A DNA stretch of 64,000 nt from Candidatus Levyibacteriota bacterium (GTDB taxonomy: Bacteria; Patescibacteriota; Microgenomatia; Levybacterales; UBA12049). The notes under the pieces were generated by a model. That model worked only from the letters and a program-made list of their open reading frames with translations, ran no database searches and was not told the origin of the DNA. The position numbers and the translations under genes are program-made. The stretch covers positions 858 to 64,857 of the forward strand of contig JACQKQ010000033.1 of NCBI GenBank assembly GCA_016204465.1. The letters run 5' to 3'. The number at the start of each line of letters is the position of its first letter. The stretch's first letter is position 1. This document shows positions 3,901 through 33,055 of the stretch, piece by piece.

Positions 3901-5193
3901 ATGATAATAACGTTCGTTGGACATGGGTATGTGGGTTTGGTAACAGCGGCGGTTTTTGCCGATTTAGGCAACACAGTGTGGGTTATCGGCCACACGCCGG
4001 AGAAAATAGAAAATCTAGAAAAAGGAATTATTCCAATTTTCGAGCCGGGACTTGAAGAGCTGGTCAAGCGAAATGTTAAAGCATCTCGGCTCTTGTTCAC
4101 TCTTTCGTACGAAGAGGCGATTCGAGCATCAAAAGTCGTTTTTATCGCTGTTGGCACTCCGCCAAAACAAAATGGCGAAGCAGACCTTTCGGTTGTTTTT
4201 GAAGTTGCGGAAAAGATCGGAAAACACCTCGATGGCTATACGGTCGTGGTAACAAAAAGCACCGTTCCTGTTGGTACCAATAAAGAAGTGCAAAAAATTA
4301 TTCAGCGTGTTAAGAGCGAGAAGGCAACGTTTGACATTGGCTCTGCTCCCGAATTCTTACGCGAAGGACAAGCGATTAGCGATACTTTACATCCAGATAG
4401 AGTTGTTATCGGCACCGAAACAAAAGCTGCGCGCGACATGCTTGTTGAGCTTCATAAACCAATTGACGGCAGATTCGTTCTAACAAACATCGAAACTGCA
4501 GAGATGATAAAATACGCAGCAAATGCATTCCTTGCGACAAAAATTTCTTTTGCTAATGCAATTGCGCATCTCTGCGAATTAACCGGCGCTGATGGGTTAA
4601 AAGTTTTGGCAGGGATGGGGCTAGATAAGCGGATCGGGAGTCCGTTTCTTTCTCCGGGAGCAGGCTACGGCGGTAGCTGTTTTCCAAAAGACGTGAAAGC
4701 GCTTATTGCTATTGCAAAAAAATACAATTACGATTTTAGGCTACTTGGCGAGGTAGAAGCAATTAATAAATTTGCCATTCTCAATATTGTCAAAAAGGCA
4801 GAAGTGCTCCTTGGGGGAAGTATAAAAAGCAAAACAGTATGCGTGCTCGGTTTGGCATTTAAGCCGGATACCGATGACATGCGTGACGCACCGTCGATTA
4901 CCATAATTTCCGCATTGCAAAAAGGAGGGGCAAAAATTCAAGCATACGACCCAATTGCTATGAGCAATGCCAAAAAAATTCTCCGTGGCGTTACGTACTA
5001 CAACAATTCGTATGAAGCGGCAAAGGGCGCTGATATTGTGGTTGTGGTTACCGAATGGAACGAGTTTCGCCAGCTTGATTTACAGAAGGTAAAACAGCTT
5101 ATGAAATCACCGAATCTGCTTGACGCAAGAAATATCTACGAGCCCCAAAAGGCGCGTAGTATTGGGTTTTCCTATCAAGGGGTGGGGCGATAA
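3901..5193 (+). CDS. ugd: UDP-glucose 6-dehydrogenase
   Basis: MIITFVGHGYVGLVTAAVFADLGNTV N-terminal NAD-binding motif, GGSCFPKD catalytic Cys motif, 430 aa. Confidence 0.9.
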   Translation: MIITFVGHGYVGLVTAAVFADLGNTVWVIGHTPEKIENLEKGIIPIFEPGLEELVKRNVKASRLLFTLSYEEAIRASKVVFIAVGTPPKQNGEADLSVVFEVAEKIGKHLDGYTVVVTKSTVPVGTNKEVQKIIQRVKSEKATFDIGSAPEFLREGQAISDTLHPDRVVIGTETKAARDMLVELHKPIDGRFVLTNIETAEMIKYAANAFLATKISFANAIAHLCELTGADGLKVLAGMGLDKRIGSPFLSPGAGYGGSCFPKDVKALIAIAKKYNYDFRLLGEVEAINKFAILNIVKKAEVLLGGSIKSKTVCVLGLAFKPDTDDMRDAPSITIISALQKGGAKIQAYDPIAMSNAKKILRGVTYYNNSYEAAKGADIVVVVTEWNEFRQLDLQKVKQLMKSPNLLDARNIYEPQKARSIGFSYQGVGR

Positions 5194-11295: not shown

Positions 11296-12022
11296 TATTC
11301 AAAATCTTCATGTAACAACGGAAGGCAAAGACATTCTAAAAGGTATTAATCTTTTAATAAAACCTGGCGAAGTGCATGCGATCATGGGGCCAAATGGCGC
11401 TGGAAAAACAACGCTTGCGATGAGCTTGATGGGAAACCCGAATTACCAGTTCAAAATGCAAAATGCAAAATTCAAAATTAACGATAAGAACATGTTCAAA
11501 TTAACTCCAGAGGAACGGGCGAGGGCTGGGCTTTTTGTTTCGTTTCAGCATCCGGTTAGCGTTATCGGTGTTTCAGTTTTGGCGTTTTTGCGTACTGCAT
11601 ACAAAGCGCTTCATCCGCAAAAACCTATTAAGCTTTCCGAGTTCAAGGAGACCGTAAAAAAGTCATTATTGCAAGTAGGTTTACCAGAAGATTTTATGCA
11701 GCGATCAATTAACGAAGGATTTTCTGGTGGAGAGAAAAAGCGCATGGAGATTGTTCAACTACTTGTTCTTAAACCAAGATATGCCATCCTTGATGAAATT
11801 GATTCAGGGCTTGATATTGATAGTCTTCGTATTATTGCCAAAGCTGTGGCAAAGATTGTTAAAAAACAAAAAATGGGGATTTTGCTTATCACCCATTACC
11901 AACGAATTCTCCATTACTTAAAGCCTGATTTCGTTCATGTTCTCAAAGAGGGAAAAATTGCAGCTTCTGACGGCATGGCACTTGTTACCAAAATTGAAAG
12001 GAAGGGTTATGCAACAATTTGA
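11288..12022 (+). CDS. sufC: Fe-S cluster assembly ATPase SufC
   Basis: Walker [14 protein letters not shown] signature FSGGEKKR, Walker B ILDEIDSG. Confidence 0.9.
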
Positions 12023-13438: not shown

Positions 13439-14008
13439 ATGCAAAATATAGAAATTGTTATAAAAAAGAATGAAAATAAAGTTTTCCCCTTTGTTTGGAT
13501 CAATAGTGACGAAGAAGAGGTAGTAATTGATGCACGTTTGGTTGGGGAGGGGGCAAGACTTTCAATTATCGGAATTTTTGTCGGGGCTGACCAAAAACAT
13601 ATCACGTTTAATACAAACATCGTCCATGAAGCAAAAAATACATATAGCAGAACAACGCTTCGTGGAGTCTTTAAGGATCATAGTGTTTTTAGCAATGATG
13701 GATTAGTCCGAATCAACAAAGGCGCGAAAGGAGCGGATGGGTTTTTTGATTCAAAAGTACTGCTTTTCGATGATGCAAAAGGGCGAAGTGTTCCATCGCT
13801 TGAGATTGATGAAAACGAATTAAAAGCAGGTCATGCGTCAACCGTTGGCAGGCCGGATGCAGAGCAAATATTTTATTTACGAAGCAGAGGACTGTCCGAA
13901 GAAGAAGCAGAGAAGCTCATTGTTTCGGGGTTTTTTACACCTATTTTGAAACAATTCTCAAAAGATAAGCAACTACAATTATCAAAACGAATAGAAGAAA
14001 TGTTATGA
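13439..14008 (+). CDS. sufD: short SufD-like Fe-S assembly protein
   Basis: C-terminal SufB/D family region (IFYLRSRGLSEEEAEKLIVSGFF); a 189-aa short form. Confidence 0.6.
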   Translation: MQNIEIVIKKNENKVFPFVWINSDEEEVVIDARLVGEGARLSIIGIFVGADQKHITFNTNIVHEAKNTYSRTTLRGVFKDHSVFSNDGLVRINKGAKGADGFFDSKVLLFDDAKGRSVPSLEIDENELKAGHASTVGRPDAEQIFYLRSRGLSEEEAEKLIVSGFFTPILKQFSKDKQLQLSKRIEEML

Positions 14009-15225
14009 AAAACCATAAAAAAGATTTTCCTATTTTCCAAAACAATCCAGACCTCATTTATTTAGATTCTGCGGCAACGAGCCAAAAGCCAAGGGTCGTT
14101 TTGGATGCAATAAATGAGTATTATACTTCGTATAACGCAAACATAAAGCGGGGGATATACCCAATTGCGGAGAAAGCGACCGCAAAAGTGGAGGAAGTAA
14201 GAAAAAAAGTTGCGCAATTTATTAACGCGAAGTCTAAAGATGAGATTATTTTTGTCCGTAATGCGACAGAAGCAATTAATCTTGTCGCATACTCTCTTGC
14301 GAGCACATCCGCCAGCTGGCGGATTTCAAGAGGGGATACAATTGCGACAACTATTATGGAGCACCACTCAAATTTTGTACCTTGGCAACAACTCGCCATT
14401 CAAAAAAATGCTGATTTTCTAGTACTGGATATCGATCAGAATTTCAAATTTCAAATATCAAATTTCAAATATCAAATAAAAAACGCCAAAATTTTGGCAA
14501 TAACGCACGTCTCCAATGTTCTTGGCACAATAAATCCGCTCAAAAAAATGATCAATGATTTACGAACAGTGAACGCTGATCTCATCATTCTTGTTGATGC
14601 GGCGCAGTCGGTGCCGCATATGAGCGTTGATGTGCAGGATTTGGATTGCGATTTTTTGGTGTTTTCAGGGCACAAAATGATGGCGGCAACAGGGATCGGT
14701 GTTCTTTACGGCAAGAAAACGCTGCTTTCAAAAATGCAGCCGTTTTTGTACGGCGGTGAAATGATTCGCGAAGTAACTATTCAAAATACGTCATTTGCAA
14801 AGCTTCCACACAAATTTGAGGCTGGAACGCCGGATATTGCTGGCATTGTAAGCTTAGGCGCTGCAATTGAGTACTTAAATAGTACGGGTATAGAAAATGT
14901 TCTAAAACACGAGATTATGCTCATAAAATATGCATTAGAGCAATTAAAAAATATGCAAGAACTCACTATTTACGGATCTACAAATGCTCGTAAGCGAGGG
15001 GGGGTAATATCGTTCAATCTCAAAGGAATTCACCCTCACGACGTTGCGCAAATTTTAGGAGAAATGGAAATTTGTATTCGCGCCGGCCACCACTGCGCAA
15101 TGCCTTTGCACAACCGCTTAGGAATTCCGGCATCCGCGCGCATTAGTTTCTATATTTACAATGAAGAGCAAGATATAGATAAATTTGTTAATGGATTACA
15201 AAAGGTTCAAAAAATGTTTAGATAA
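14005..15225 (+). CDS. sufS: cysteine desulfurase SufS
   Basis: PLP-lysine motif FSGHKMMAATGIGVLYGK, AITHVSNVLG, active-site RAGHHCA. Confidence 0.9.
   Translation: MKNHKKDFPIFQNNPDLIYLDSAATSQKPRVVLDAINEYYTSYNANIKRGIYPIAEKATAKVEEVRKKVAQFINAKSKDEIIFVRNATEAINLVAYSLASTSASWRISRGDTIATTIMEHHSNFVPWQQLAIQKNADFLVLDIDQNFKFQISNFKYQIKNAKILAITHVSNVLGTINPLKKMINDLRTVNADLIILVDAAQSVPHMSVDVQDLDCDFLVFSGHKMMAATGIGVLYGKKTLLSKMQPFLYGGEMIREVTIQNTSFAKLPHKFEAGTPDIAGIVSLGAAIEYLNSTGIENVLKHEIMLIKYALEQLKNMQELTIYGSTNARKRGGVISFNLKGIHPHDVAQILGEMEICIRAGHHCAMPLHNRLGIPASARISFYIYNEEQDIDKFVNGLQKVQKMFR
14443..14477 (+). repeat. 5 x 7-nt tandem repeat (TTCAAAT/ATCAAAT) inside sufS
   Basis: Perfect heptamer periodicity; encodes NFKFQISNFKYQIKN. 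Confidence 0.8.
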
Positions 15226-15231
15226 AAGATT

Positions 15232-15612
15232 ATGGATTTTTCGAAGATATACAGAGAAGAAATTTTGGAGCACTATAAAGAGCCGCTGAATTTTGGAACA
15301 CTCGAAGATTTTGATATGACATCGCGACAGTTTAATCCTTTTTGCGGCGATGAGATTGTGATCTTCGTTACATTTCAGAATGATAAAATTAGCGATATTC
15401 GATTTCAGGGAAAAGGGTGCGCAATAAGTGTTGCCGCGGCGTCAATGCTTACCGAACACGCAAAAGGAAGATCGAAAGAGGAGTTGACAAAATTTACAGA
15501 AGACGATATGCTAAGCCTAATTGGGATAGATGTTTCAGAGACCCGTAAGAAGTGTGTGTTTTTAGCGTTGGGAGTGTTAAAAGATTGTTTAGTGCAAAAT
15601 GCAAAATTTTAA
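15232..15612 (+). CDS. sufU: SufU/IscU-like Fe-S scaffold (NifU N-terminal family)
   Basis: Conserved cysteines at CGDEI, GKGCAISVAAASM and KKCVFLALG. Confidence 0.75.
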   Translation: MDFSKIYREEILEHYKEPLNFGTLEDFDMTSRQFNPFCGDEIVIFVTFQNDKISDIRFQGKGCAISVAAASMLTEHAKGRSKEELTKFTEDDMLSLIGIDVSETRKKCVFLALGVLKDCLVQNAKF

Positions 15613-15660
15613 TTTTTATTTGTATTTTTGATTTTTAATATTTAATTTTTGATTTTTTTT
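15593..15660 (+). repeat. period-7 tract (TGCAAAA x2, then TTTTAAT-like units) spanning the sufU stop and the sufU-ferredoxin spacer
   Basis: Read from the sequence. Confidence 0.55.
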
Positions 15661-16031: not shown

Positions 16032-17771
16032 GTGAGCGATATTCAGTGGTTGATTGGTGGCGAGGCAGGGTACGGCATCATGACAACAGGGGTTATGATG
16101 TCGAAAATCTTTACCCGTTTGGGATTTTCGGTGTTTGATTATGTCGAGTATCCGTCGCTTATTCGCGGTGGACATAATGCATACTATGTTCGAGGTTCTG
16201 ACGAACAAATCTACTCACAAAAACAGCCGGTTGATATTTTGGTCGCACTCAACAGAGAAACAATTGATAAACACAAGCACGAACTAACTCCCGCTGCCAA
16301 AGTCGTGTTCGATCCAAACTTCACAAAGGTAGAGGCGAATGAATTCCCTGCTGGCATTGTTCAAATCCCTGTTCCTTTTTTAGAAATCACAAAGCAACTA
16401 AATGTTGATAGGCTTATGATCAACACCGTTGCTGTTGGTGCGTCCTTAGCGCTTTTTTACAATGATTACGCAGTTCTAGAGAAAATTATGCGGGATGTAT
16501 TTGGCAGAAAAGGGGAAAAAGTAGTTTCGGAAAATGTGAATACATCGAAAGCTGGGTTTGATTATGTACTCAAAAACTTTGCTTTAGCATGCACGTCGGT
16601 TGCAAAAAAACAGCAAGAAAACTTACTTTTGGGTGGTTCTGAAGCAATTGCCTTAGGCGCAATAAGGGCGGGGCTTAAATTTGCAGCAATTTATCCTATG
16701 ACACCTATTAATGGCGTTTTGACAACGCTTGCAGCGTATGCGCTCAAGTACAACATTATTGTTAAAGAACCGGAAGATGAGATTGCCGGTATAAATATGG
16801 CAATTGGCGCGTCGTTTGCAGGCGTTAGAAGTATGGCAGCAACAAGCGGCGGCGGATTTTCATTAATGGTAGAAGGTTTAGGGCTTGCTGCCCAAACAGA
16901 AGTGCCGTTAGTTGTTATAGAAGGGATGCGGCCGGGGCCGGCAACCGGTATGCCAACGTGGACAGAGCAAGGTGATCTTCGCTTTGTCTTGCACGCAGCG
17001 CAGGGAGATTTTCCAAGAATTGTTGTTGCTCCGGGAGATATTTTTGAAGAGTTTACTTTTACAATGGACGCGTTTAATCTGGCTGAAAAATACCAATTGC
17101 CGGTTATTGTTCTAACAGATAAATATCTTAACGAAGGTCATGCAACAATTAAAAGCGAAGAGCTAAAAGCGAAAAGCGAAAAATATGTAATTCAGCGAGG
17201 GAAAATGCTCACAGATCAAGAACTCGCTAGTCAAACAGATTATAAACGATATGCATTTGTCGAAGATGGCATATCGCCTCGAAGTTTGCCAGGCCAGCAA
17301 GGTGGAATCGGGCTTACTGGTTCCGATGAGCACGATGAGCACGGGCTTTACAACGAAGAATCAGAAGTACGTATTAAAATGATGGATAAGCGGTTTAAAA
17401 AATTAGAAATGGCAACTGCAGAAATTTCTCAACCAGTAATGCACGGTTCAAAAGAAGCGCCATTGACTATTTTTGCTTTTGGCTCAACAAAATTACCACT
17501 TCTTGAAGCAATGCAGTGGCTTGCAAAAGAAAATATTTTGGTAAACTTTGTTCAAGTAGTATTCATTTCGCCATTCCCAACAGAGTACGTAGCCAAAGCG
17601 ATACAATCTGCAAAAAAGACAATGGTAATTGAAGGCAATAAAACAGGCCAATTTGAAGGGTTAATTAGAGAGTATACAGGTTTATCAGTCAATCACCATT
17701 TCCGAAAATACGACGGCCGGCCGTTTTACCCAGAAGAAATCGTTGCGAAAGTGAAGGAGGTTTTGAAGTAA
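16032..17771 (+). CDS. korA: 2-oxoacid:ferredoxin oxidoreductase alpha subunit (KorA/PorA-type)
   Basis: GTG start; 579-aa subunit whose stop overlaps the beta-subunit start (TAATG). Confidence 0.8.
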   Translation: MSDIQWLIGGEAGYGIMTTGVMMSKIFTRLGFSVFDYVEYPSLIRGGHNAYYVRGSDEQIYSQKQPVDILVALNRETIDKHKHELTPAAKVVFDPNFTKVEANEFPAGIVQIPVPFLEITKQLNVDRLMINTVAVGASLALFYNDYAVLEKIMRDVFGRKGEKVVSENVNTSKAGFDYVLKNFALACTSVAKKQQENLLLGGSEAIALGAIRAGLKFAAIYPMTPINGVLTTLAAYALKYNIIVKEPEDEIAGINMAIGASFAGVRSMAATSGGGFSLMVEGLGLAAQTEVPLVVIEGMRPGPATGMPTWTEQGDLRFVLHAAQGDFPRIVVAPGDIFEEFTFTMDAFNLAEKYQLPVIVLTDKYLNEGHATIKSEELKAKSEKYVIQRGKMLTDQELASQTDYKRYAFVEDGISPRSLPGQQGGIGLTGSDEHDEHGLYNEESEVRIKMMDKRFKKLEMATAEISQPVMHGSKEAPLTIFAFGSTKLPLLEAMQWLAKENILVNFVQVVFISPFPTEYVAKAIQSAKKTMVIEGNKTGQFEGLIREYTGLSVNHHFRKYDGRPFYPEEIVAKVKEVLK

Positions 17772-19762
17772 TGCCAACGACATTAAAAGATTTAGAGATT
17801 ACCTACGACAAGCCAAACTGGTGTCCGGGGTGTGTTGTGCCAAACACGTTTATTCAAACAAACCCGTCTGCGACGCTTGTTGCAAATATCAAAAAAAACG
17901 ATAAAGTAATTGCAAGCGATGGTAAGACCCATGTCGTAACAGAAACGATGAGCCACATACACAACGGCGTTGTGTACCAATTAGTCTCAAAGTACTTTGG
18001 AGAAACGACGCTAACCCAAGAACATCCAGTACTTGCTGTTCGGCGAAAATATCGTAAGTTGCAAAATATTGAGTTTAAGTCCGAATGGATTGAGGCAGGA
18101 GAACTTCAAGCTGGAGATTACCTTCTTTATCCAATCCTAAAAGAGACAAGAAACATTCAGACAATAAACCTTTCGTACGTTAGAAAAACAAAAGATACCA
18201 AGGGCAAGATACTCCCAAAACAAATTGTTCTTTCCAATAGCTTTTTGCGCCTCTGCGGTTATTATATTGCCGAAGGATATGTCCACAGACGATCTATCAA
18301 TCTTACCTTCCATATAAAAGAGCAAGAGTATGCAGACGATGTTATACAAATTATGGAAGAAATCTTTAATCTTTCTAGTAAAAAAGTTTTAAGAAAAGGC
18401 AAACAAACCGTCGACCTATCTTTTAATTCTTCCTATCTTTCCGAGTTTTTTGAAGAATGGTTTGGTAAAGGAGCTATTGCGAAAAAAATTCCTGATTTCT
18501 TAATGTTTTTGCCAAAAGAAAAGCAAGGAGAGCTTATAAAAGGATTATGGCGAGGGGATGGCTGGGTAAGCCAGAAAACACATAGGGCAAGTTTTAAAAC
18601 AATTTCTAAAGTTTTATGCGAGCAAGTAAAAGTCCTGCTTCTTCGCTTTGGTATTTTACCAATAATAAGTGTCTACAAAGCCTATGGCATGCATAAAATG
18701 TCGTATGCAATACAACTAAGAGATCCATACGACTTTTCTCTTCTTGCCAAAATTTTAAGCATGGAAGACAACATAGTTGTCGCTTCAAGAACAAGAAATC
18801 TCATAACTTCTGATTTTGCGTTTCTACCAATTAAAAAAATTGAAAAGAAAAAATATAAAGGACCGGTCTATAACATGGAAGTTGAAACAGAAAATGCCTA
18901 TGTTTCCGAGAATGCAATTTTGCACAATTGCGGCGATTTCGGCGTGTGGGTATCAATAAAAAACGCCATTGTGCAACTTGGCCTTAACCCATGGGAGGTG
19001 GTACTTGTGTCTGGTATTGGCTGTTCAGGGAAATTGCCCTATTGGGTAAAAACGTACGGATTCAATGGTTTGCATGGTAGGCCAATGCCGCCGGCCGAGG
19101 CGATCAAGCTTGCAAACCACGGCTTAACAGTAATTGTTATTGGCGGTGACGGCGATCAATACAGTGAAGGCGCAAATCACCTCATCCATGCGATGCGCCG
19201 CAATATTAATATCACACTTATTGTTCACAATAATCAAATCTACGGTCTCACAACCGGCCAGTATTCGCCAACTACCGACATTGGAGAGAAAAACAAAACA
19301 ACACCCGTGCCAACGGTTGAGGCGCCGGTGAATCCAATGTCTTTGGCTCTTGCAGCAGGAGCTACGTTTGTCGCGCGTGGGTTTGCTGGAGATAACAAGC
19401 AAGAAACAGAGCTTATTGTTGCTGGTATCAAACATAAAGGGTTTTCGATTATTGACACCATGCAGCCGTGCGTTACATTTAACCACAAAAACACCTTTTC
19501 ATGGTTTTATGAGCGCGTCTACAAAGTAGAAGCGCAAGGACATGATCCAAAAAACAAACAAAAAGCGTTTGCGTTGGCCGAACAATGGCCGCTGCGTGCA
19601 CCACTCAAAGAAGGCGAAAAAGAACATATTCCAACGGGCATTCTTTTTCAAGAAGATCGTCCAACATGGGAAGACGGCATTCCGCAAATTAGCCAAACGC
19701 CGCTTGTGAAACAGCCGCTTCAAAACATTGACATTTTACCAATCCTCAAAGACTTAGCATAA
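17771..19762 (+). CDS. korB: 2-oxoacid:ferredoxin oxidoreductase beta subunit (TPP-binding), interrupted by a 366-aa intein with LAGLIDADG homing endonuclease
   Basis: Exteins give the canonical WCPG|CGDFG TPP-subunit motif once residues 21-386 are removed. The insert has intein blocks: N-terminal Cys, block B TLTQEH, LAGLIDADG-like LCGYYIAEGYV and LIKGLWRGDGWVS, a VYNMEVE block and terminal HN followed by Cys+1. Confidence 0.85.
   Translation: MPTTLKDLEITYDKPNWCPGCVVPNTFIQTNPSATLVANIKKNDKVIASDGKTHVVTETMSHIHNGVVYQLVSKYFGETTLTQEHPVLAVRRKYRKLQNIEFKSEWIEAGELQAGDYLLYPILKETRNIQTINLSYVRKTKDTKGKILPKQIVLSNSFLRLCGYYIAEGYVHRRSINLTFHIKEQEYADDVIQIMEEIFNLSSKKVLRKGKQTVDLSFNSSYLSEFFEEWFGKGAIAKKIPDFLMFLPKEKQGELIKGLWRGDGWVSQKTHRASFKTISKVLCEQVKVLLLRFGILPIISVYKAYGMHKMSYAIQLRDPYDFSLLAKILSMEDNIVVASRTRNLITSDFAFLPIKKIEKKKYKGPVYNMEVETENAYVSENAILHNCGDFGVWVSIKNAIVQLGLNPWEVVLVSGIGCSGKLPYWVKTYGFNGLHGRPMPPAEAIKLANHGLTVIVIGGDGDQYSEGANHLIHAMRRNINITLIVHNNQIYGLTTGQYSPTTDIGEKNKTTPVPTVEAPVNPMSLALAAGATFVARGFAGDNKQETELIVAGIKHKGFSIIDTMQPCVTFNHKNTFSWFYERVYKVEAQGHDPKNKQKAFALAEQWPLRAPLKEGEKEHIPTGILFQEDRPTWEDGIPQISQTPLVKQPLQNIDILPILKDLA
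17831..18928 (+). mobile_element. intein with LAGLIDADG homing endonuclease domain, inserted in korB at the CPGC|GDFG motif
   Basis: Starts with Cys (CVVPNTF...), ends ...ENAILHN, followed by extein Cys. Boundaries computed from the ORF frame: 1098 nt = 366 aa. Confidence 0.8.
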
Positions 19763-24023: not shown

Positions 24024-24929
24024 ATGAATATTATTAAAAATAAGAAAATTTTCTTTGCGATTTCATTATTGGTAATGATTCCGGGAATAATCTCGCTTTT
24101 GCTGTTTGGTTTGAAACTGTCCATTGATTTTACTGGAGGAAGCAAAATAGAATATCAAATTTCAAATATCAAATTTCAAATATCAAATACAGAATTACAA
24201 AAATTAATAAAAGAAAAAGGAGTAGATGTAGGTTCAATACAGACTGCGGAAGGAAATCGATATATTGTTCGAACAAAGCCAATTGATCAGAAAAAATATA
24301 CGGAAGTAACAAACGCATTAAAAAATAAATATAAAGATTTGAAAGAAATTAGTTTTCAGACAGTCGGTCCAACGATTGGGAAAGAAACAACAGTAAATGC
24401 CGTAAAATCCGTTGTGTTTGCCTCGGTACTTATTATTTTCTATATAGCGTGGTCATTTCGAAAAGTACCAAAGCCGGCGAGCAGTTGGCGGTTTGGGGTA
24501 TGTGCTATTGTCGCGCTACTCCACGACGTGCTGGTTGTAATTGGTGTGTTTTCTCTACTTGGATATTTCTTAAGCGTTGAGATAGACAGTCTTTTTGTGA
24601 CAGCATTACTTACAATTATTGGTTTCTCTGTCCATGATACGATTGTCGTGTTTGACAGAATCCGCGAAAACTTGCGTAGAATGCCAGATGTTGCATTTCC
24701 AAAGATTGTCAACGAGTCAATCCTACAGACAATGGTGCGGTCGCTAAATACGTCGTTTACCACTCTTTTGGTACTGTTCACCCTTTTTCTTTTTGGGGGA
24801 GAGAGCACAAAGTGGTTTATGGTTGCTCTCATAGTTGGTATCACAAGCGGCACGTATTCCTCAATCTTCAACGCTGCTCCGCTTCTGGTTGTATGGCATG
24901 AGTGGAACACGCGAGGAAAGTTAAGTTAA
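24024..24929 (+). CDS. secF: protein translocase subunit SecF
   Basis: IDFTGGSKIEY start region, conserved SecF TM domain, follows secD. Confidence 0.9.
   Translation: MNIIKNKKIFFAISLLVMIPGIISLLLFGLKLSIDFTGGSKIEYQISNIKFQISNTELQKLIKEKGVDVGSIQTAEGNRYIVRTKPIDQKKYTEVTNALKNKYKDLKEISFQTVGPTIGKETTVNAVKSVVFASVLIIFYIAWSFRKVPKPASSWRFGVCAIVALLHDVLVVIGVFSLLGYFLSVEIDSLFVTALLTIIGFSVHDTIVVFDRIRENLRRMPDVAFPKIVNESILQTMVRSLNTSFTTLLVLFTLFLFGGESTKWFMVALIVGITSGTYSSIFNAAPLLVVWHEWNTRGKLS
24154..24188 (+). repeat. 5 x 7-nt tandem repeat (ATCAAAT/TTCAAAT) inside secF, sharing an identical 28-nt stretch with the sufS tract
   Basis: Perfect heptamer periodicity; encodes YQISNIKFQISNT. Confidence 0.8.
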
Positions 24930-27674: not shown

Positions 27675-27741
27675 TTGATTTAAAATTATTTTGTCTTACG
27701 TTTTTATAGATGCTTTACCAATCTTTTAATTTTTAATTATA

Positions 27742-29136
27742 TTAACTACTACTAATTTCTTTCATACGTTTAATCAAATACTCGCGATTATTTTTTGATA
27801 AATCTTCATCCACTTCTTCGAAAAGTTTTTGCAGTATTTCACCCACCTTTGGACAGGGTTTTATATTGAGCTCTCTCATTACATCATTCCCATCAACTGC
27901 CATATCTTCTACAGAAAATGGTTTTGGTTGCAGCTGTTTCTCAATTCGCTTCTTAAATAACTTTAGTCTCCAACTTTCGGCAGTTTGCGTTCCTCCTCCT
28001 AAACGATCGCCAATACGTAAATCCATTATGTCTTTCACATTTTCAACACCTACCCGTCGAATAAATCGTCTGACCGCCGCATCGGTTATTTTCTCGTCAA
28101 CAGTAAACATGTGCCACCTAACAAGATTCACAATTCGCTCTCGATCTTTTTTTGAAAACTTAAGCCGGTCGCAAATGTTTCGTACTATCCTTGCTCCTAC
28201 AACTTCGTGATTATAAAATGTTACAAGCCCCTGTTCGTCTTTACCAATAACACGCGGTTTTCCCGCATCGTGCAGAAGTGTTGCAAATCTAACGATTGAA
28301 TCTCGTGAAGGGCAGAACTTAAGCGAGAGCACATTATGTGTAAATACATCGGCTGTATGGTGCCGGCCAGGCCTAGCTTGTGAAACCCCGACACCTTCAA
28401 GCAATTCTGGCAAGATATGATCCAAAAGTGCAGAATTTCGCAATAATATTACTCCATCGTACGGATAATCACTGCTAAGAATACGAAGCAGCTCATTTCT
28501 TATACGTTCTGCCGATATGTGCGTAATTAGCTTGGCATCCGCAGTGATTGCACTCCAGGTTTTTTCTTCGATGGTAAAGGAAATTTCGGTTGCAATACGA
28601 ACGGCGCGCAGGAGTCGCAACGCATCTTCTTTGAAACGTTTATCTGGCTCTCCGACAGCTTTGATAATTTTGCTTTCAATATCTTTTTTGCCTTTATATG
28701 GATCAATAAGATTGGTCGTTAGTCGTTGGTCGTTCGTCGTTAGCGAAAGGGCGATTGCGTTTATGGTAAAATCACGGCGGGATAAGTCTTCTTCAATAGT
28801 TTTTCCCCATGCAACTTTGTCTGGACGTCTTTTGTCTCCGTAGCCGTGCTCTGTTCGAAACGTTGTAACCTCGACAACCTGTTCCTTATCTTCAACTTTA
28901 ATAGGTAGACCTACAGTCCCGAATGTGTTATCATAGAAACCGCTAGGAAAGAGTTTAAGAATGTCCTCTGGTTTTGCATTTGTTGCAAAGTCCCAGTCCT
29001 TGATAGGTATATCCATGAGGAGGTTGCGTACACATCCGCCAACAAAGAATATTTCAAGCTTATTCTCTGTGAATTTTTTGTAGACTTCGATGAGTTCTTT
29101 AGGAATACGTTTAATCATCTGTTTATAGTATAACAA
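27742..29136 (-). CDS. cca: CCA-adding tRNA nucleotidyltransferase with HD domain
   Basis: N-terminal polymerase-beta head (FFVGGCVRNLLMDIPIKDWDFATNAKPED) and HD motif (LLHDAGKP). Confidence 0.85.
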   Translation of the reverse strand: MLYYKQMIKRIPKELIEVYKKFTENKLEIFFVGGCVRNLLMDIPIKDWDFATNAKPEDILKLFPSGFYDNTFGTVGLPIKVEDKEQVVEVTTFRTEHGYGDKRRPDKVAWGKTIEEDLSRRDFTINAIALSLTTNDQRLTTNLIDPYKGKKDIESKIIKAVGEPDKRFKEDALRLLRAVRIATEISFTIEEKTWSAITADAKLITHISAERIRNELLRILSSDYPYDGVILLRNSALLDHILPELLEGVGVSQARPGRHHTADVFTHNVLSLKFCPSRDSIVRFATLLHDAGKPRVIGKDEQGLVTFYNHEVVGARIVRNICDRLKFSKKDRERIVNLVRWHMFTVDEKITDAAVRRFIRRVGVENVKDIMDLRIGDRLGGGTQTAESWRLKLFKKRIEKQLQPKPFSVEDMAVDGNDVMRELNIKPCPKVGEILQKLFEEVDEDLSKNNREYLIKRMKEISSS

Positions 29137-29144
29137 ATTAGCCT

Positions 29145-30866
29145 ATGAAGAAGTGGGAGGTTATCCATAAGTTCAAAGTTCAAAGTTCAAAGTTCAAAGT
29201 TAAAGAGCTTATTGATATTCTTTTAGAAAACCGAGGTATAAAAACGGCCAAAGCCCGAAAAGAGTTCCTTAATCCAAAACTTGAGGATGTTACTACAGAG
29301 TCGGTTGGAATTGACGAGGATAAGTTAAAAAAAGCGTTAAGTAGAATTAAAAAAGCAATTCAGGAGAAAGAGCAGATTGTTATTTTTGGCGACTACGATG
29401 TAGACGGTATCTGCGGCACTGCAATTCTTTGGGAAACCCTCCATAGCCTAGGTGCAAAAGTTCTTCCTTACATACCTCATCGTGTTGATGAAGGCTACGG
29501 CCTTTCAAAGAAAGGAATTTCAAATCTCCAATTTCATCTATTCGACAAGCTCAGGACAAGAATGTCAAATGTCAAATTAATTATTACCGTGGATAATGGG
29601 ATTGTTGCAAACGAGGCCGTTCAATACGCTATAAAACAGGGGATTGATGTTATTATTACCGATCATCATGTTCCTTCTAAAAAATTACCAAAAGCACATG
29701 CGATTGTGCATACGACAAAGTTGTGTGGGACTGGTGTTGCCTATTTGCTTGCGAAAAAGATTCTGAAACAAGTTCAGCATGACAACGGCGAGGATGATCA
29801 CTTAGGTCTTGTAGCCTTGGCTACGGTTGCGGATTTAGTGCCGCTCACCAGTAGTAATAGAACGTTGTTAACGCATGGGCTCAAAGTTCTTAGACAGTCT
29901 AATCGGCCCGGGCTTTTAGCTTTGTGCAAAGAGGCAGGTATCAATCAAAAAACTATCGGCACGTATGAAATTGGTTATATTATTGCGCCAAGGCTCAACG
30001 CGATGGGAAGAATAACTTCTGCTATGGATAGTCTTAGGCTTTTGTGCACGAAAAGCCAAGAGCGGGCAAGCCTACTTGCTCAAAAATTATGTTTAACCAA
30101 TAAAGAACGCCAGTTGCTAACAGAAGAGACTGTACTTCATGCGTTTACTGGAATAAGAAATCAGGAATCAGGAACTAAGAAACTATTATTCGTTGCGCAT
30201 GAAACATATCAGCAAGGAGTTATTGGACTTGTCGCCGGTAAGATTGTTGAAGAGTTCTACCGCCCGACTATTGTTGTCTCAAAAGGAGAGGTATATAGCA
30301 AGGCATCGGCGCGATCGGTTGCAGGATTTAATATGATTGAGTTTATCCGCCAGGCCTCAAACCTCCTTGTAGATGTTGGCGGTCATCCTATGGCTGCGGG
30401 GTTTACCGTTGAGACCGAAAAACTTGTGCTTCTTCAGGAAAAACTTGAAGGACTTGCAGAGACACTACTTAATGGAGACAAACTTACAAAAACGCTTCGT
30501 ATAGATTGCGAATTACCACTTTCGATTGCCAGTCGCGACCTCCTCACAGTGCTTGAAGAGCTTGCTCCGTTTGGCATGGGAAACCCGCAGCCTTCATTTG
30601 TGAGCCGAGGTGTGTTTATTGAGGACATGCGATTGGTGGGAAGAGATAAAAAACACATCAAATTTCAATTCAAAAGCCAAAATGCAATCCTTCGACTTCG
30701 CTCAGGACAGGAAGTCAAAATAGACGGAATTTCGTTTGGAATGGGAGAACGAGCGCACGAATTCTCCATTGGGCAGAAAGTTGATATCGTTTATACGATT
30801 AGTGAGGATAAGTGGAATGGAAATACCGCGTTGCAGCTTAAAATAAAAGACCTAAAACCCTCTTAA
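29145..30866 (+). CDS. recJ: single-stranded-DNA-specific exonuclease RecJ
   Basis: DHH motifs (IVIFGDYDVDGICG, ITDHH), DHHA1 region (GGHPMAAG). Confidence 0.85.
   Translation: MKKWEVIHKFKVQSSKFKVKELIDILLENRGIKTAKARKEFLNPKLEDVTTESVGIDEDKLKKALSRIKKAIQEKEQIVIFGDYDVDGICGTAILWETLHSLGAKVLPYIPHRVDEGYGLSKKGISNLQFHLFDKLRTRMSNVKLIITVDNGIVANEAVQYAIKQGIDVIITDHHVPSKKLPKAHAIVHTTKLCGTGVAYLLAKKILKQVQHDNGEDDHLGLVALATVADLVPLTSSNRTLLTHGLKVLRQSNRPGLLALCKEAGINQKTIGTYEIGYIIAPRLNAMGRITSAMDSLRLLCTKSQERASLLAQKLCLTNKERQLLTEETVLHAFTGIRNQESGTKKLLFVAHETYQQGVIGLVAGKIVEEFYRPTIVVSKGEVYSKASARSVAGFNMIEFIRQASNLLVDVGGHPMAAGFTVETEKLVLLQEKLEGLAETLLNGDKLTKTLRIDCELPLSIASRDLLTVLEELAPFGMGNPQPSFVSRGVFIEDMRLVGRDKKHIKFQFKSQNAILRLRSGQEVKIDGISFGMGERAHEFSIGQKVDIVYTISEDKWNGNTALQLKIKDLKPS
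29171..29198 (+). repeat. 4 x GTTCAAA tandem repeat at the recJ 5' end
   Basis: Perfect 28-nt tract followed by the degenerate unit GTTAAAG; encodes KFKVQSSKFKVK. Confidence 0.8.
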
Positions 30867-31702: not shown

Positions 31703-33055
31703 ATGTATTATGAATCAGGAAACATGAATCAGGAAACAAAAAGAGCGTTAGCTGCAGACTGTTTGGAAAGAATTGGGCAGGAAGTGACCCTTGCGGGTTG
31801 GGTGCAGACGGTTAGGGCGCATGGCAAAATAGCCTTTTTTGACCTTCGCGACCGCTCGGGCAGCATCCAGATAGTTGGTGTTTCAGAAGATTTAGCCAAA
31901 GTCGTAACAAACCTTAACCAGCAGGATGTGGTTGAGGTCAAAGGTACCGTTAAGAAGCGAAAAGATGCGTTTGTGAATCCGCATACACCGTTTGGCTCAA
32001 TTGAGATTGCGGCTTTCTCTCTTGCCATACTTAGTAAAGCTGAAACCATGCCTTTTGACATGGCAGGAAAAGAGCTTGTATTAGAGCTTCCAACTCTTCT
32101 TGATCACCGTTCTCTTTCACTTCGCCATCCTAAAGTTTCTGCGATTTTTTCTGTTCAGGCGTCAATACTTGAAGGCTTTCGCAAAATGGCAGAAAAATTT
32201 AACTGCACAGAGATTGTCGTGCCAACGATTGCCAACATCGCAACAGAAGGAGGCGCCGAGGTGTTTCCCGTTGATTACTATGGCCACAAGGCGTACCTTA
32301 CCCAAAGCCCACAGCTTTACAAGCAAATGATGGTGCCAATTTTTGAGCGCGTATGGACGATTGCAAAGGCTTATAGGGCCGAATCTTCGGTTACCACTCG
32401 TCATTTGGCCGAAACAACACAGCTTGATTTTGAAATCGGGTTTATTAATTTTGAAGGGTTGCTTGATATGTTTGAAGAGGTAGCGGTAGGAATGTTAAAA
32501 CACGCAGAAAATGCATCGAAAGCAATATTAAGGTCGTTTAACATTCCGCCAATTGGCTTTGAGAAAATTCCACGATTTACCCTTTCGCAAGCGCAAGTAA
32601 TTATTTTTAAGGCGTACAAGCGCGACGTGCGAAGCCAAAAGGATCTCTCTCCCCAAGACGAGATAGACATTTGCGCCTGGGTTCGCAAAGAGTATGGCAG
32701 CGATCTGGTGACCATTACGCACTTTCCAACAAAAAAACGAGCCTTCTATACCATGCCAGATCCAAAAAATCCCGAATTCTCATTAAGCTACGACGTTTTA
32801 TTTCGGGGCGTTGAGATACTAAGCGGTAGCCAGCGAATTCACGAGTACGATAAATTGGTCGCTGCAATAAAGACAAGAGGGCTTGATCCAAAGGCGTTTG
32901 ACATGTACCTTATGGCGTTTCGGTACGGTATGCCGCCGGAGGGCGGTTTCTCATTTGGCTTGGAACGCATAACAATGAAGATGCTTGGTCTTCCTAATAT
33001 CCGGCAGGCAAGCCTTTTTCCTCGAGATATGGAGCGTGTTGATGAAAGGTTATGA
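31703..33055 (+). CDS. aspS: aspartyl-tRNA synthetase (archaeal/short class II type)
   Basis: N-terminal OB-fold anticodon-binding domain and class II motifs (FRYGMPPEGGFSFGLERI motif 3). Confidence 0.85.
   Translation: MYYESGNMNQETKRALAADCLERIGQEVTLAGWVQTVRAHGKIAFFDLRDRSGSIQIVGVSEDLAKVVTNLNQQDVVEVKGTVKKRKDAFVNPHTPFGSIEIAAFSLAILSKAETMPFDMAGKELVLELPTLLDHRSLSLRHPKVSAIFSVQASILEGFRKMAEKFNCTEIVVPTIANIATEGGAEVFPVDYYGHKAYLTQSPQLYKQMMVPIFERVWTIAKAYRAESSVTTRHLAETTQLDFEIGFINFEGLLDMFEEVAVGMLKHAENASKAILRSFNIPPIGFEKIPRFTLSQAQVIIFKAYKRDVRSQKDLSPQDEIDICAWVRKEYGSDLVTITHFPTKKRAFYTMPDPKNPEFSLSYDVLFRGVEILSGSQRIHEYDKLVAAIKTRGLDPKAFDMYLMAFRYGMPPEGGFSFGLERITMKMLGLPNIRQASLFPRDMERVDERL

Follow-up and report, generated by a model that had tools for sequence, protein, structure and literature searches.

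Short translated repeats within essential genes are known from Rickettsia, where palindromic elements of about 100-150 nucleotides (nt), with hairpin potential and a single consensus, are inserted at surface-exposed positions of the encoded proteins. Here we describe tandem 7-nt repeats that are translated within housekeeping genes of a Candidatus Levybacteria metagenome-assembled genome (Microgenomates, candidate phyla radiation, CPR). The analysis covered 64 kb of this genome, hereafter the window, and centres on two tracts that share a block of identical sequence, one in the gene for the cysteine desulfurase SufS and one in the gene for SecF.

Among the long simple sequence repeats of prokaryotes, 7-nt units form the most abundant of the longer classes (Mrazek et al. 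2007, as cited in PMC4679880 and PMC4692102). Slippage has been suggested as the cause, with 7 nt proposed as the contact length of the polymerase (Mrazek et al., as cited in PMC4679880). Heptanucleotide repeats are described as mostly intergenic and under-represented in open reading frames (ORFs), and units that are not a multiple of three are rare in coding regions (PMC4679880, PMC4692102). Essential genes would be expected to be purged of such repeats, since the gain or loss of a single unit throws the reading frame out. Rehm et al. found that GGGNATC repeats prefer four units in both Xanthomonas and Nostoc and attributed this to quadruplex formation (PMC4692102), a reason inapplicable to the Levybacteria tracts since their units are A/T-rich. 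The TAACTGA repeats of Beggiatoaceae and cyanobacteria and the cyanobacterial STRR heptamers occur genome-wide in 2-6 copies, are patchily distributed and are of unknown origin (PMC4679880). TAACTGA repeats have one dominant unit per genome, lie mostly upstream of start codons and are almost never translated, since their forward orientation contains stop codons (PMC4679880). In NeuO of the E. coli K1 prophage CUS-3, the poly-psi motif (AAGACTC)n encodes the heptad RLKTQDS with every three units; at this phase-variable contingency locus the copy number ranges over 2-93, one-unit changes are frequent and out-of-frame alleles switch the enzyme off (PMC3046976). The tandem repeats of Borgs are perfect, genome-specific and fast-evolving, and create new peptide segments within ORFs; their in-ORF units are all divisible by three and add new disordered regions (PMC9879509).

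The heptamer tracts of SufS and SecF

The two tracts and their host genes are as follows.

14438..14478, + strand: heptamer tract of SufS, AGAAT + (TTCAAAT, TTCAAAT, ATCAAAT, TTCAAAT, ATCAAAT) + A; units proper 14443-14477; peptide QNFKFQISNFKYQI
24149..24189, + strand: heptamer tract of SecF, AGAAT + (ATCAAAT, TTCAAAT, ATCAAAT, TTCAAAT, ATCAAAT) + A; units proper 24154-24188; peptide EYQISNIKFQISN
14005..15225, + strand: host gene 1, SufS-type cysteine desulfurase (class-V aminotransferase, E 4e-144; B. subtilis SufS 5J8Q, 2e-120)
24024..24929, + strand: host gene 2, SecF (PF02355, PF07549), with SecD upstream

The initial annotation had described five WTCAAAT units in each gene, preceded by GAAT. 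Both arrays were found, each in frame and each led in by AGAAT; Tandem Repeats Finder (TRF) scored them at period 7 with 5.4 copies in SufS and 5.6 in SecF. The SufS gene is part of a suf operon (Rrf2-SufC-SufB-SufD-SufS-NifU) and its ORF contains DQNFKFQISNFKYQIKNAK, the tract itself being read as QNFKFQISNFKYQIKN, while the SecF ORF contains EYQISNIKFQISNTE. As 7 and 3 have no common factor, a patch is read in all three phases and a 7-nt period becomes a period of seven amino acids (aa). The translations bear out this part of the annotation, with the 7-aa repeats NFKFQIS / NFKYQIK and YQISNIK / FQISN.

An identity of 28 nt between the two genes had been noted. The identity is real, but it is longer: 35 nt match exactly (14444-14478 = 24155-24189), and with the AGAAT lead-in the shared block comprises 41 nt with one mismatch. 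The flanks beyond it are unrelated, so that the identity forms a block with abrupt borders, as gene conversion would leave. A repeat search identified the pair as the longest dispersed direct repeat of the window (88% over 57 nt), in which the shared tract has two copies. Three WTCAAAT units in succession occurred seven times in the window and not once in 100 shuffles; period-7 tracts of at least three units occurred four times, compared with none in 30 Markov shuffles.

Orthologue alignments placed each tract in the most variable segment of its protein, in agreement with the earlier description, and the predicted SufS model had a local confidence (pLDDT) of 69-77 over the tract, lower than elsewhere. 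DNA folding revealed no hairpin or other secondary structure at the SufS and SecF tracts (z-scores 0.87 and -0.39) and no stable hairpin across the four tract sequences folded (0.87, -0.39, 0.30 and -0.14). Terminal repeats or target duplications flanking the two tracts were not found by inspection of the sequence. A programmed frameshift site (A AAT TTC as X XXY YYZ) was considered and dropped, as direct reading showed that the zero frame mismatches the motif frame. Upstream in the same gene, at SufS aa 100-108 (window 14302-14328), the window and its three closest relatives have a 4-aa insertion (STSASWRI) that the other aligned orthologues lack.

Period-7 tracts across Levybacteria genomes

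Translated heptanucleotide microsatellites pervade the genomes of Levybacteria, and the SufS and SecF tracts are members of this class. The DUF3048 gene, located between SufS and SecF, was used to gather 80 syntenic loci from other Levybacteria genomes, none of them identical to the window (best match 64% identity). The total survey comprised 84 loci and 1.37 Mb, in which a tandem repeat was recorded if it reached 2.8 copies, 80% match and a score of 40; tract detection depends on these TRF thresholds, and ORF calls are unreliable in high-GC metagenome contigs. Of 112 tandem repeats, 100 had period 7, as against three of period 8, six of period 9, two of period 11 and one of period 12. Perfect runs of at least 24 matched positions were confined to period 7, the other periods simply tailing off. 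Stop-free stretches of at least 100 aa contained 78 of the 93 non-redundant tracts (~84%), which occurred at any position along the ORFs; the 15 tracts outside such stretches had units that mostly contain stops. Perfect tracts measured 31-38 nt with a peak at 33 nt and almost none at 21-30 nt, and non-coding tracts likewise had about 4-5 units. A metagenome scan for four TCAAATN units matched more than 120 stretches, with exactly four cores in 61 of the 80 metagenome loci listed.

Tract load was uneven among genomes (chi-square p=2.5e-7): 47 of 82 loci had no tract, while three loci had 6-8 tracts per 21 kb. GC content showed no correlation with load across the 82 loci (rho 0.13, p=0.24). Confinement of all tracts to one clade was rejected, since on the DUF3048+SecD tree the tract-rich genomes are dispersed and sister taxa are unlike in load. 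In the literature searched, coverage of which was incomplete, we found no description of such tracts for CPR, Patescibacteria or Levybacteria; a widespread habit of in-gene 7-base repeats in this group has apparently gone undescribed so far. Many of the contigs used (loci L004-L083) are clearly Levybacteria and yet are titled 'uncultured Gammaproteobacteria bacterium', a deposited name that is apparently wrong; these loci have 55-64% DUF3048 identity and a matching gene order around DUF3048.

The tract sites are old and orthologous across the phylum. In RecJ, tracts recurred at aa ~15 in 13 loci, at aa ~135 in eight and at aa ~210 in six. The CCA-adding enzyme (CCA) had them at aa ~135 in six loci; SufS at aa ~150, the POR alpha/gamma subunit (PORa) at aa ~375 and SecF at aa ~45 in five loci each; and SufC at aa ~60 in three. 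The units at these sites vary. They differ among the 13 loci of the RecJ N-terminal site, and the SufS site holds a perfect (AATTTTC)4.4 in the complete genome CP066685.1, as opposed to AATWTCA in the window, with a decayed (AATTTTC) version in another genome. In the alignment, many SufS orthologues have NFQFSIFNFQSN-type peptides and others an ENGFLDLD-type sequence as in ordinary SufS. At the SecF site we found a perfect (ATATCAA)5.4 in L004, (ATACCAA) in L009, alternating ATTTCAA/ATCTCAA in L011 and AATTCAR in L005. Among the 120 closest SecF orthologues, which are 62-78% identical, most have EYQISNIKYQISN, EIQSSKFKIQNS, EVQSSEFKIQNS or similar peptides, the three named being translations of (TATCAAA)n, (ATTCAAA)n and (GTTCAAA)n respectively, while more distant Levybacteria have the non-repeat sequence GGSRLTLSF... 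in SecF. The nearest relatives (78% identity; P0002 and P0122) have non-tract or interrupted sequence at both the SufS and the SecF site. Units were alike (at least 14 nt shared) more often at the same site across genomes (5%) than at different sites (1.8%), and most tracts within one genome differ in their units.

The initial annotation had raised lineage-specific insertions of a propagating mini-repeat. As the sites recur with different units in related genomes, and many Levybacteria at 60-78% identity hold either tracts or decayed 7-aa remains there, a reading as lineage-specific insertions in this genome is not supported. The annotation had also proposed a refutation of its own reading, namely orthologues that keep the peptide without nucleotide periodicity; in spirit that refutation is borne out, for the peptide does occur at the site in orthologues, but several of these keep the nucleotide period as well.

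Protein length likewise speaks against insertion. The tracts mostly replace an ancestral segment and alter its length slightly or not at all: between the SufS tract and B. subtilis SufS 5J8Q the difference is 1 aa, and the SecF tract region is ~4 aa longer than that of T. thermophilus SecDF. In RecJ, length at the aa ~130 tracts is equal in 34 of 37 other orthologues, and 19 of 32 RecJ tracts overall equal the median orthologue length. The RecJ tract peptide GISNLKSQISNLKL aligns column by column with GIDNLLKENKEVDL of tract-free orthologues, and SIKFQISNFKFQIEV, the tract of a metagenomic LeuRS, gives a gap-free alignment with EILFPVEGKEVRIPV of T. thermophilus (2V0C). A net insertion relative to tract-free orthologues, such as a mobile mini-repeat would leave, was not observed. 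Length steps of 7 aa do occur now and then between species, SecF of P0152 and P0156 being exactly 7 aa shorter and the RecJ tract of L036 7 aa longer. Some tract-free RecJ orthologues are still 7-aa periodic at the N-terminus (ELRIKKDELRS, KLKFKSEKLKV) and, judged by their sequence, look like decayed tracts. All SufS, SecF and RecJ orthologues examined were in frame, and the hosts include SufC, POR and the CCA enzyme; the tracts therefore do not behave as contingency loci of the NeuO type.

TRF reported a dozen period-7 tracts with other units in the window, all between 11 and 36 kb. Those assigned to genes or intergenic positions are given below.

11452..11479, + strand: tract of SufC (ABC ATPase), CAAAATG CAAAATG CAAAATT CAAAATT, aa ~59; L004 has (AAATATC)4.7 at the same site
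15607..15657, + strand: non-coding tract between NifU and the next ORF, (TTTTAAT)7.6, 82% match
17151..17182, + strand: tract of PORa, (AAAAGCG)4.6, aa ~378
28715..28743, - strand: tract of a CCA-adding/poly(A) polymerase-family gene, coding-strand units CTAACGA, CGAACGA, CCAACGA, CTAACGA, aa ~136; the site recurs in eight genomes
29169..29205, + strand: tract of the RecJ N-terminus, (AAGTTCA)5.4, 33 nt perfect; peptide KFKVQSSKFKVK
29520..29577, + strand: remnants of an AATNTCA tract at RecJ aa ~130, TCAAATCTCCAAT ... TCAAATGTCAAAT, interrupted by an 8-aa insertion
30150..30174, + strand: weaker tract of RecJ, (GGAATCA)3.6, at the aa ~340 hotspot
31710..31738, + strand: repeat at the N-terminus of a class II aminoacyl-tRNA synthetase, 14 nt x 2.1 (ATGAATCAGGAAAC); L004 has (AATGTCA)4.4 at the same site

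At the PORa site (aa ~378), three other genomes carry the different units AAATCTC, TCCAATT and AGTTCAA. The tract remnants at RecJ aa ~126-145 of the window are split by 8 aa (GISNLQFHLFDKLRTRMSNVKL) that are missing from 35 of 38 other orthologues; in L049, 27 aa are inserted at this point. A 25-nt stretch (CAAAATTTTAATTTTTATTTGTATT) of the region of the (TTTTAAT) tract (15602-15657) recurs with 84% identity at 27719-27743, upstream of the CCA-enzyme gene. The POR beta subunit of the window (17771-19762, + strand; TPP_enzyme_C and PFO_beta_C) measures 663 aa instead of about 296 and contains an intein (Intein_splicing, aa 39-386) whose homing-endonuclease domain is of the LAGLIDADG type (LAGLIDADG_3); the orthologues of L001 and L002 lack it.

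Several lineages have GC-rich inserts of 7-10 aa in the middle of a tract (SPRDEAG, SPRGEAG, FDSAQGK, LRLRSGQ, FDFAQGK), carried by SecF of P0158, P0183, P0202, P0194, P0228, P0210, P0196 and P0122 and by SufS of P0003; some of them look like one DNA sequence in different reading frames. The SecF insert of L009 is 21 nt long (3934-3954, TCGCCTCGCGACGAAGCGGGC), and a pattern search of the loci found no further copy. In L079, two perfect (AGGAGTT)6.1 arrays (14151-14193 and 14306-14348) stand inverted ~110 nt apart and form a long heptamer-built inverted repeat at the ends of the convergent SecF and neighbour genes, outside long ORFs.

AATNTCA tracts are not restricted to Levybacteria, since they also occur in other metagenome contigs. 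L098, an unrelated contig with a GC content of 0.53, begins (1-636) with a GC-rich 168-nt tandem repeat of 3.7 copies, each with (ATCTCAA)4.3 and one with an extra heptamer unit (4.9). AATCTCA arrays of 9-13 units stand at the contig ends of L093, L094, L101 and L155. An AATNTCA tract occupies the same site of LeuRS, directly before VFTTRPDT, in three metagenome contigs (L084, L087 and L114). Further AATNTCA tracts were found in L135, L139, L156, L113, L160, L100 and L142, where the proteins concerned resemble a ValRS-like synthetase, TsaD, GluRS, glycosyltransferases and an adenylation enzyme; LeuRS was compared with solved structures, and these other hosts were named by sequence motifs.

Origin of the tracts and of the shared block

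Because all seven cyclic triplets of a translated unit serve as codons, the unit must be free of TAA, TAG and TGA. Under this filter a run of T can meet a run of A only via C, which yields a TCAA core; among coding-strand units, TTGA was present in none and TCAA in 51%. Units of the AATNTCA family vary at position 4 only. Three such units encode N-h-K-h-Q-h-S, whose three hydrophobic residues depend on the free base N; from the genetic code, changes at the fixed positions would mostly strike polar residues or make stops.

We favour, with moderate confidence, an explanation in which these translated heptanucleotide microsatellites result from period-7 templated homogenisation within stop-free and peptide filters, with a probable exchange between SufS and SecF in addition. 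Each patch of ~31-38 nt (4.4-5.4 units) occupies a structurally tolerant strand-turn or loop segment of a housekeeping gene, where its periodicity would be restored repeatedly by a period-7 templated process. The likely form of this process is a transient out-of-register misalignment, or short-patch conversion between adjacent units. One unit would be copied over the next, followed by realignment, and as no net indel results, essential genes would suffer no frameshift; slips of 21 nt (three units) may happen now and then. Selection would pass only stop-free units and favour benign alternating polar/hydrophobic peptides. Both mutation templated by quasi-repeats and dislocation of the polymerase followed by realignment are established mechanisms. 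The identity of the two tracts would stem from the one unit family (AATNTCA) that the SufS and SecF sites hold and, most probably, also from a recent copying event in which one tract served as template for the other, or a third tract for both; non-allelic gene conversion or a template switch within the tract would be the route, and the machinery that restores periodicity may occasionally use a tract elsewhere in the genome as its template. The initial annotation's appeal to a process at the DNA level was sound, as selection on the peptide cannot be the cause.

Several results weigh against this explanation. The stop filter and composition together predict TCAA in 6-16% of units, far from the 51% observed; the filter was accordingly rejected as a sufficient cause of the TCAA core, and although shared site ancestry inflates the TCAA share, a further cause works in favour of the family too. 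Nor does the size mode simply reflect the reading frame, given that non-coding tracts also have ~4-5 units; quantisation by the frame (a seed plus 21 nt) as the whole cause of the 31-38 nt mode is weakened further by the length neutrality of most tracts. No copy-number variants were found in ten protein clusters of 90% identity, a small sample in which most proteins lack fresh tracts, and the active slippage on which the model relies is thus not directly seen. Without the pair of the window, the enrichment of shared sequence within genomes described below becomes marginal (odds ratio ~7, p=0.046; pairs not phylogenetically independent). The model does not account for the choice of period 7, and the sharp contrast in load between sister genomes hints at a genome-wide factor.

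Tract pairs at different sites shared at least 34 nt in 3 of 150 cases within the same genome and in 8 of 4093 (0.2%) between different genomes, an enrichment with an odds ratio of ~10 (p=0.006) among pairs that are not phylogenetically independent. Units were also shared within a genome by two sites of L042, with (AAATCTC)5, by two sites of CP066685.1, with (AATTTTC)4.5, and by SufC and SecF of L004, with (AAATATC). At the 0.2% background, the 21 tract pairs of the window have a ~4% chance of including at least one that shares at least 34 nt. The initial annotation had called chance identity negligible, which overstates the case, as this is true against random sequence only; once the class of tracts is known, the SufS/SecF identity is unusual, not negligible by chance. 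Gene conversion, its other proposal, is made plausible by the within-genome enrichment and stays unproven.

The possibility that the two tracts were homogenised separately and converged without any exchange carries real, if clearly lesser, weight. The allowed units are few (A-rich, stop-free, NNTCAAA) and an alternation of 14 nt would come about easily. AATNTCA tracts indeed occur at at least seven different sites in many genomes and abundantly in unrelated metagenome contigs. Alternating units have arisen separately in SecF of L011 (T/C), RecJ of L005 (C/G) and CCA of L011 (C/T), and the SufS and SecF tracts of CP066685.1 are unlike (TTTTCAA and ATTCAAA); the unrelated pairs and the ~4% chance given above also speak for convergence. 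Copying between the two loci is nevertheless probable: besides the roughly tenfold enrichment within genomes, the pair has the same two unit variants in the same T/A order, and its members end alike (…CAAATA) and are both led in by AGAAT. SufS relatives mostly have AATTTTC, so that the SufS tract of the window has shifted towards the SecF-type unit. A more speculative proposal, which we advance tentatively, is that some Levybacteria and related CPR lineages rewrite ~33-nt patches into a perfect 7-nt period in place, with length kept, even inside essential genes. Such an activity would vary between lineages and would be either a dedicated enzyme or a templated form of mutation not described before; accounted for in this way would be the 31-38 nt mode, the contrasts in load between sister genomes, the sharing of units within genomes and the lack of tracts of intermediate length.

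Selection for a functional nucleic-acid element, in which ~4-5 heptads bind a protein that reads a 7-nt register on DNA or mRNA, seems to us unlikely. Candidate binders would be ribbon-helix-helix repressors, which recognise heptad iterons, or cold-shock/S1-type proteins, each taking one heptamer. The common size of coding and non-coding tracts fits such a role, as do the four-unit preference of the GGGNATC repeats (PMC4692102), the (ATCTCAA)4.3 arrays within the 168-nt repeat of an unrelated contig and the persistence of periodicity at old sites. However, there is no single recognition sequence (units include AAGTCAG, TCAGGAA, CAACAGC, TCCAATT and AATNTCA), nor anything like an iteron consensus among dozens of units placed anywhere along ORFs and, for 84% of tracts, inside them; 47 of 82 related loci have kept the genes without tracts at the same sites, and the two tracts form no secondary structure (z-scores 0.87 and -0.39). 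We consider it less probable again, and improbable in itself, that a ~33-nt heptamer unit is put into genes as a mobile mini-cassette by an element-encoded or host activity. The discrete 31-38 nt mode of perfect tracts, the same unit at two or more sites in L042, L001, L004 and the window, and the patchy, overdispersed distribution over the tree would all suit a cassette, but the length neutrality against orthologues and solved homologues largely refutes it. The lack of terminal repeats, target duplications and hairpins argues in the same direction, as do the greater likeness of units at the same site across genomes than between sites (5% and 1.8%, at least 14 nt) and the differing units of most tracts in a genome. 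That the tracts are artefacts of assembly or sequencing, or that the nucleotide period is a by-product of selection on a peptide motif, is scarcely credible: nothing was found in support beyond the fact that alternating polar/hydrophobic peptides could be tolerated as strand-turn elements. The tracts keep the frame and fall below the length of assembly k-mers, and assemblies made independently (NCBI, ENA, JGI and Logan) have them at the same sites. Their units are identical in nucleotides, every repeated residue having one codon, and between genomes the peptide changes while the 7-nt period stays.

Relation to known repeat systems

Repeats of a length that is not a multiple of three are here the dominant tandem repeat of a whole phylum, in SufS, SecF, RecJ, tRNA synthetases and similar proteins, where native strand-turn segments have been swapped for repeat-encoded peptides of equal length. 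If in-place homogenisation as favoured above is true, protein segments can be overwritten by nothing more than a mutational process, and persistently so over long evolutionary times. The tracts would then offer a natural data set of the peptides that a fold tolerates, as well as a handle on the long-noted and unexplained excess of heptanucleotide repeats in bacteria, and they would confound alignment, phylogeny and selection tests in CPR genomes.

With the heptanucleotide repeats of other prokaryotes, the Levybacteria tracts have in common tandem 7-nt units in small copy numbers; they differ in that 84% lie in housekeeping ORFs, at orthologous sites and with protein length kept. Like the NeuO motif, they are coding heptanucleotide repeats read as 7-aa heptads, but they stay near five units, reside in essential genes and, in the data examined, had no alleles that were out of frame or varied in length. 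TAACTGA and STRR repeats resemble them as genome-wide short heptamer arrays of patchy distribution, whereas the tracts of Levybacteria, compared with TAACTGA, have many units, are translated and lie inside ORFs. Borg repeats are likewise perfect nucleotide repeats in ORFs; in Levybacteria the unit is instead 7 nt long and read in all three phases, and existing structure is replaced without added length. Unlike the palindromic elements of Rickettsia, the tracts measure ~33 nt, form no hairpin, bring no net insertion and have many different units. Thus, the Levybacteria tracts share features with each of the known systems and fit none of them.

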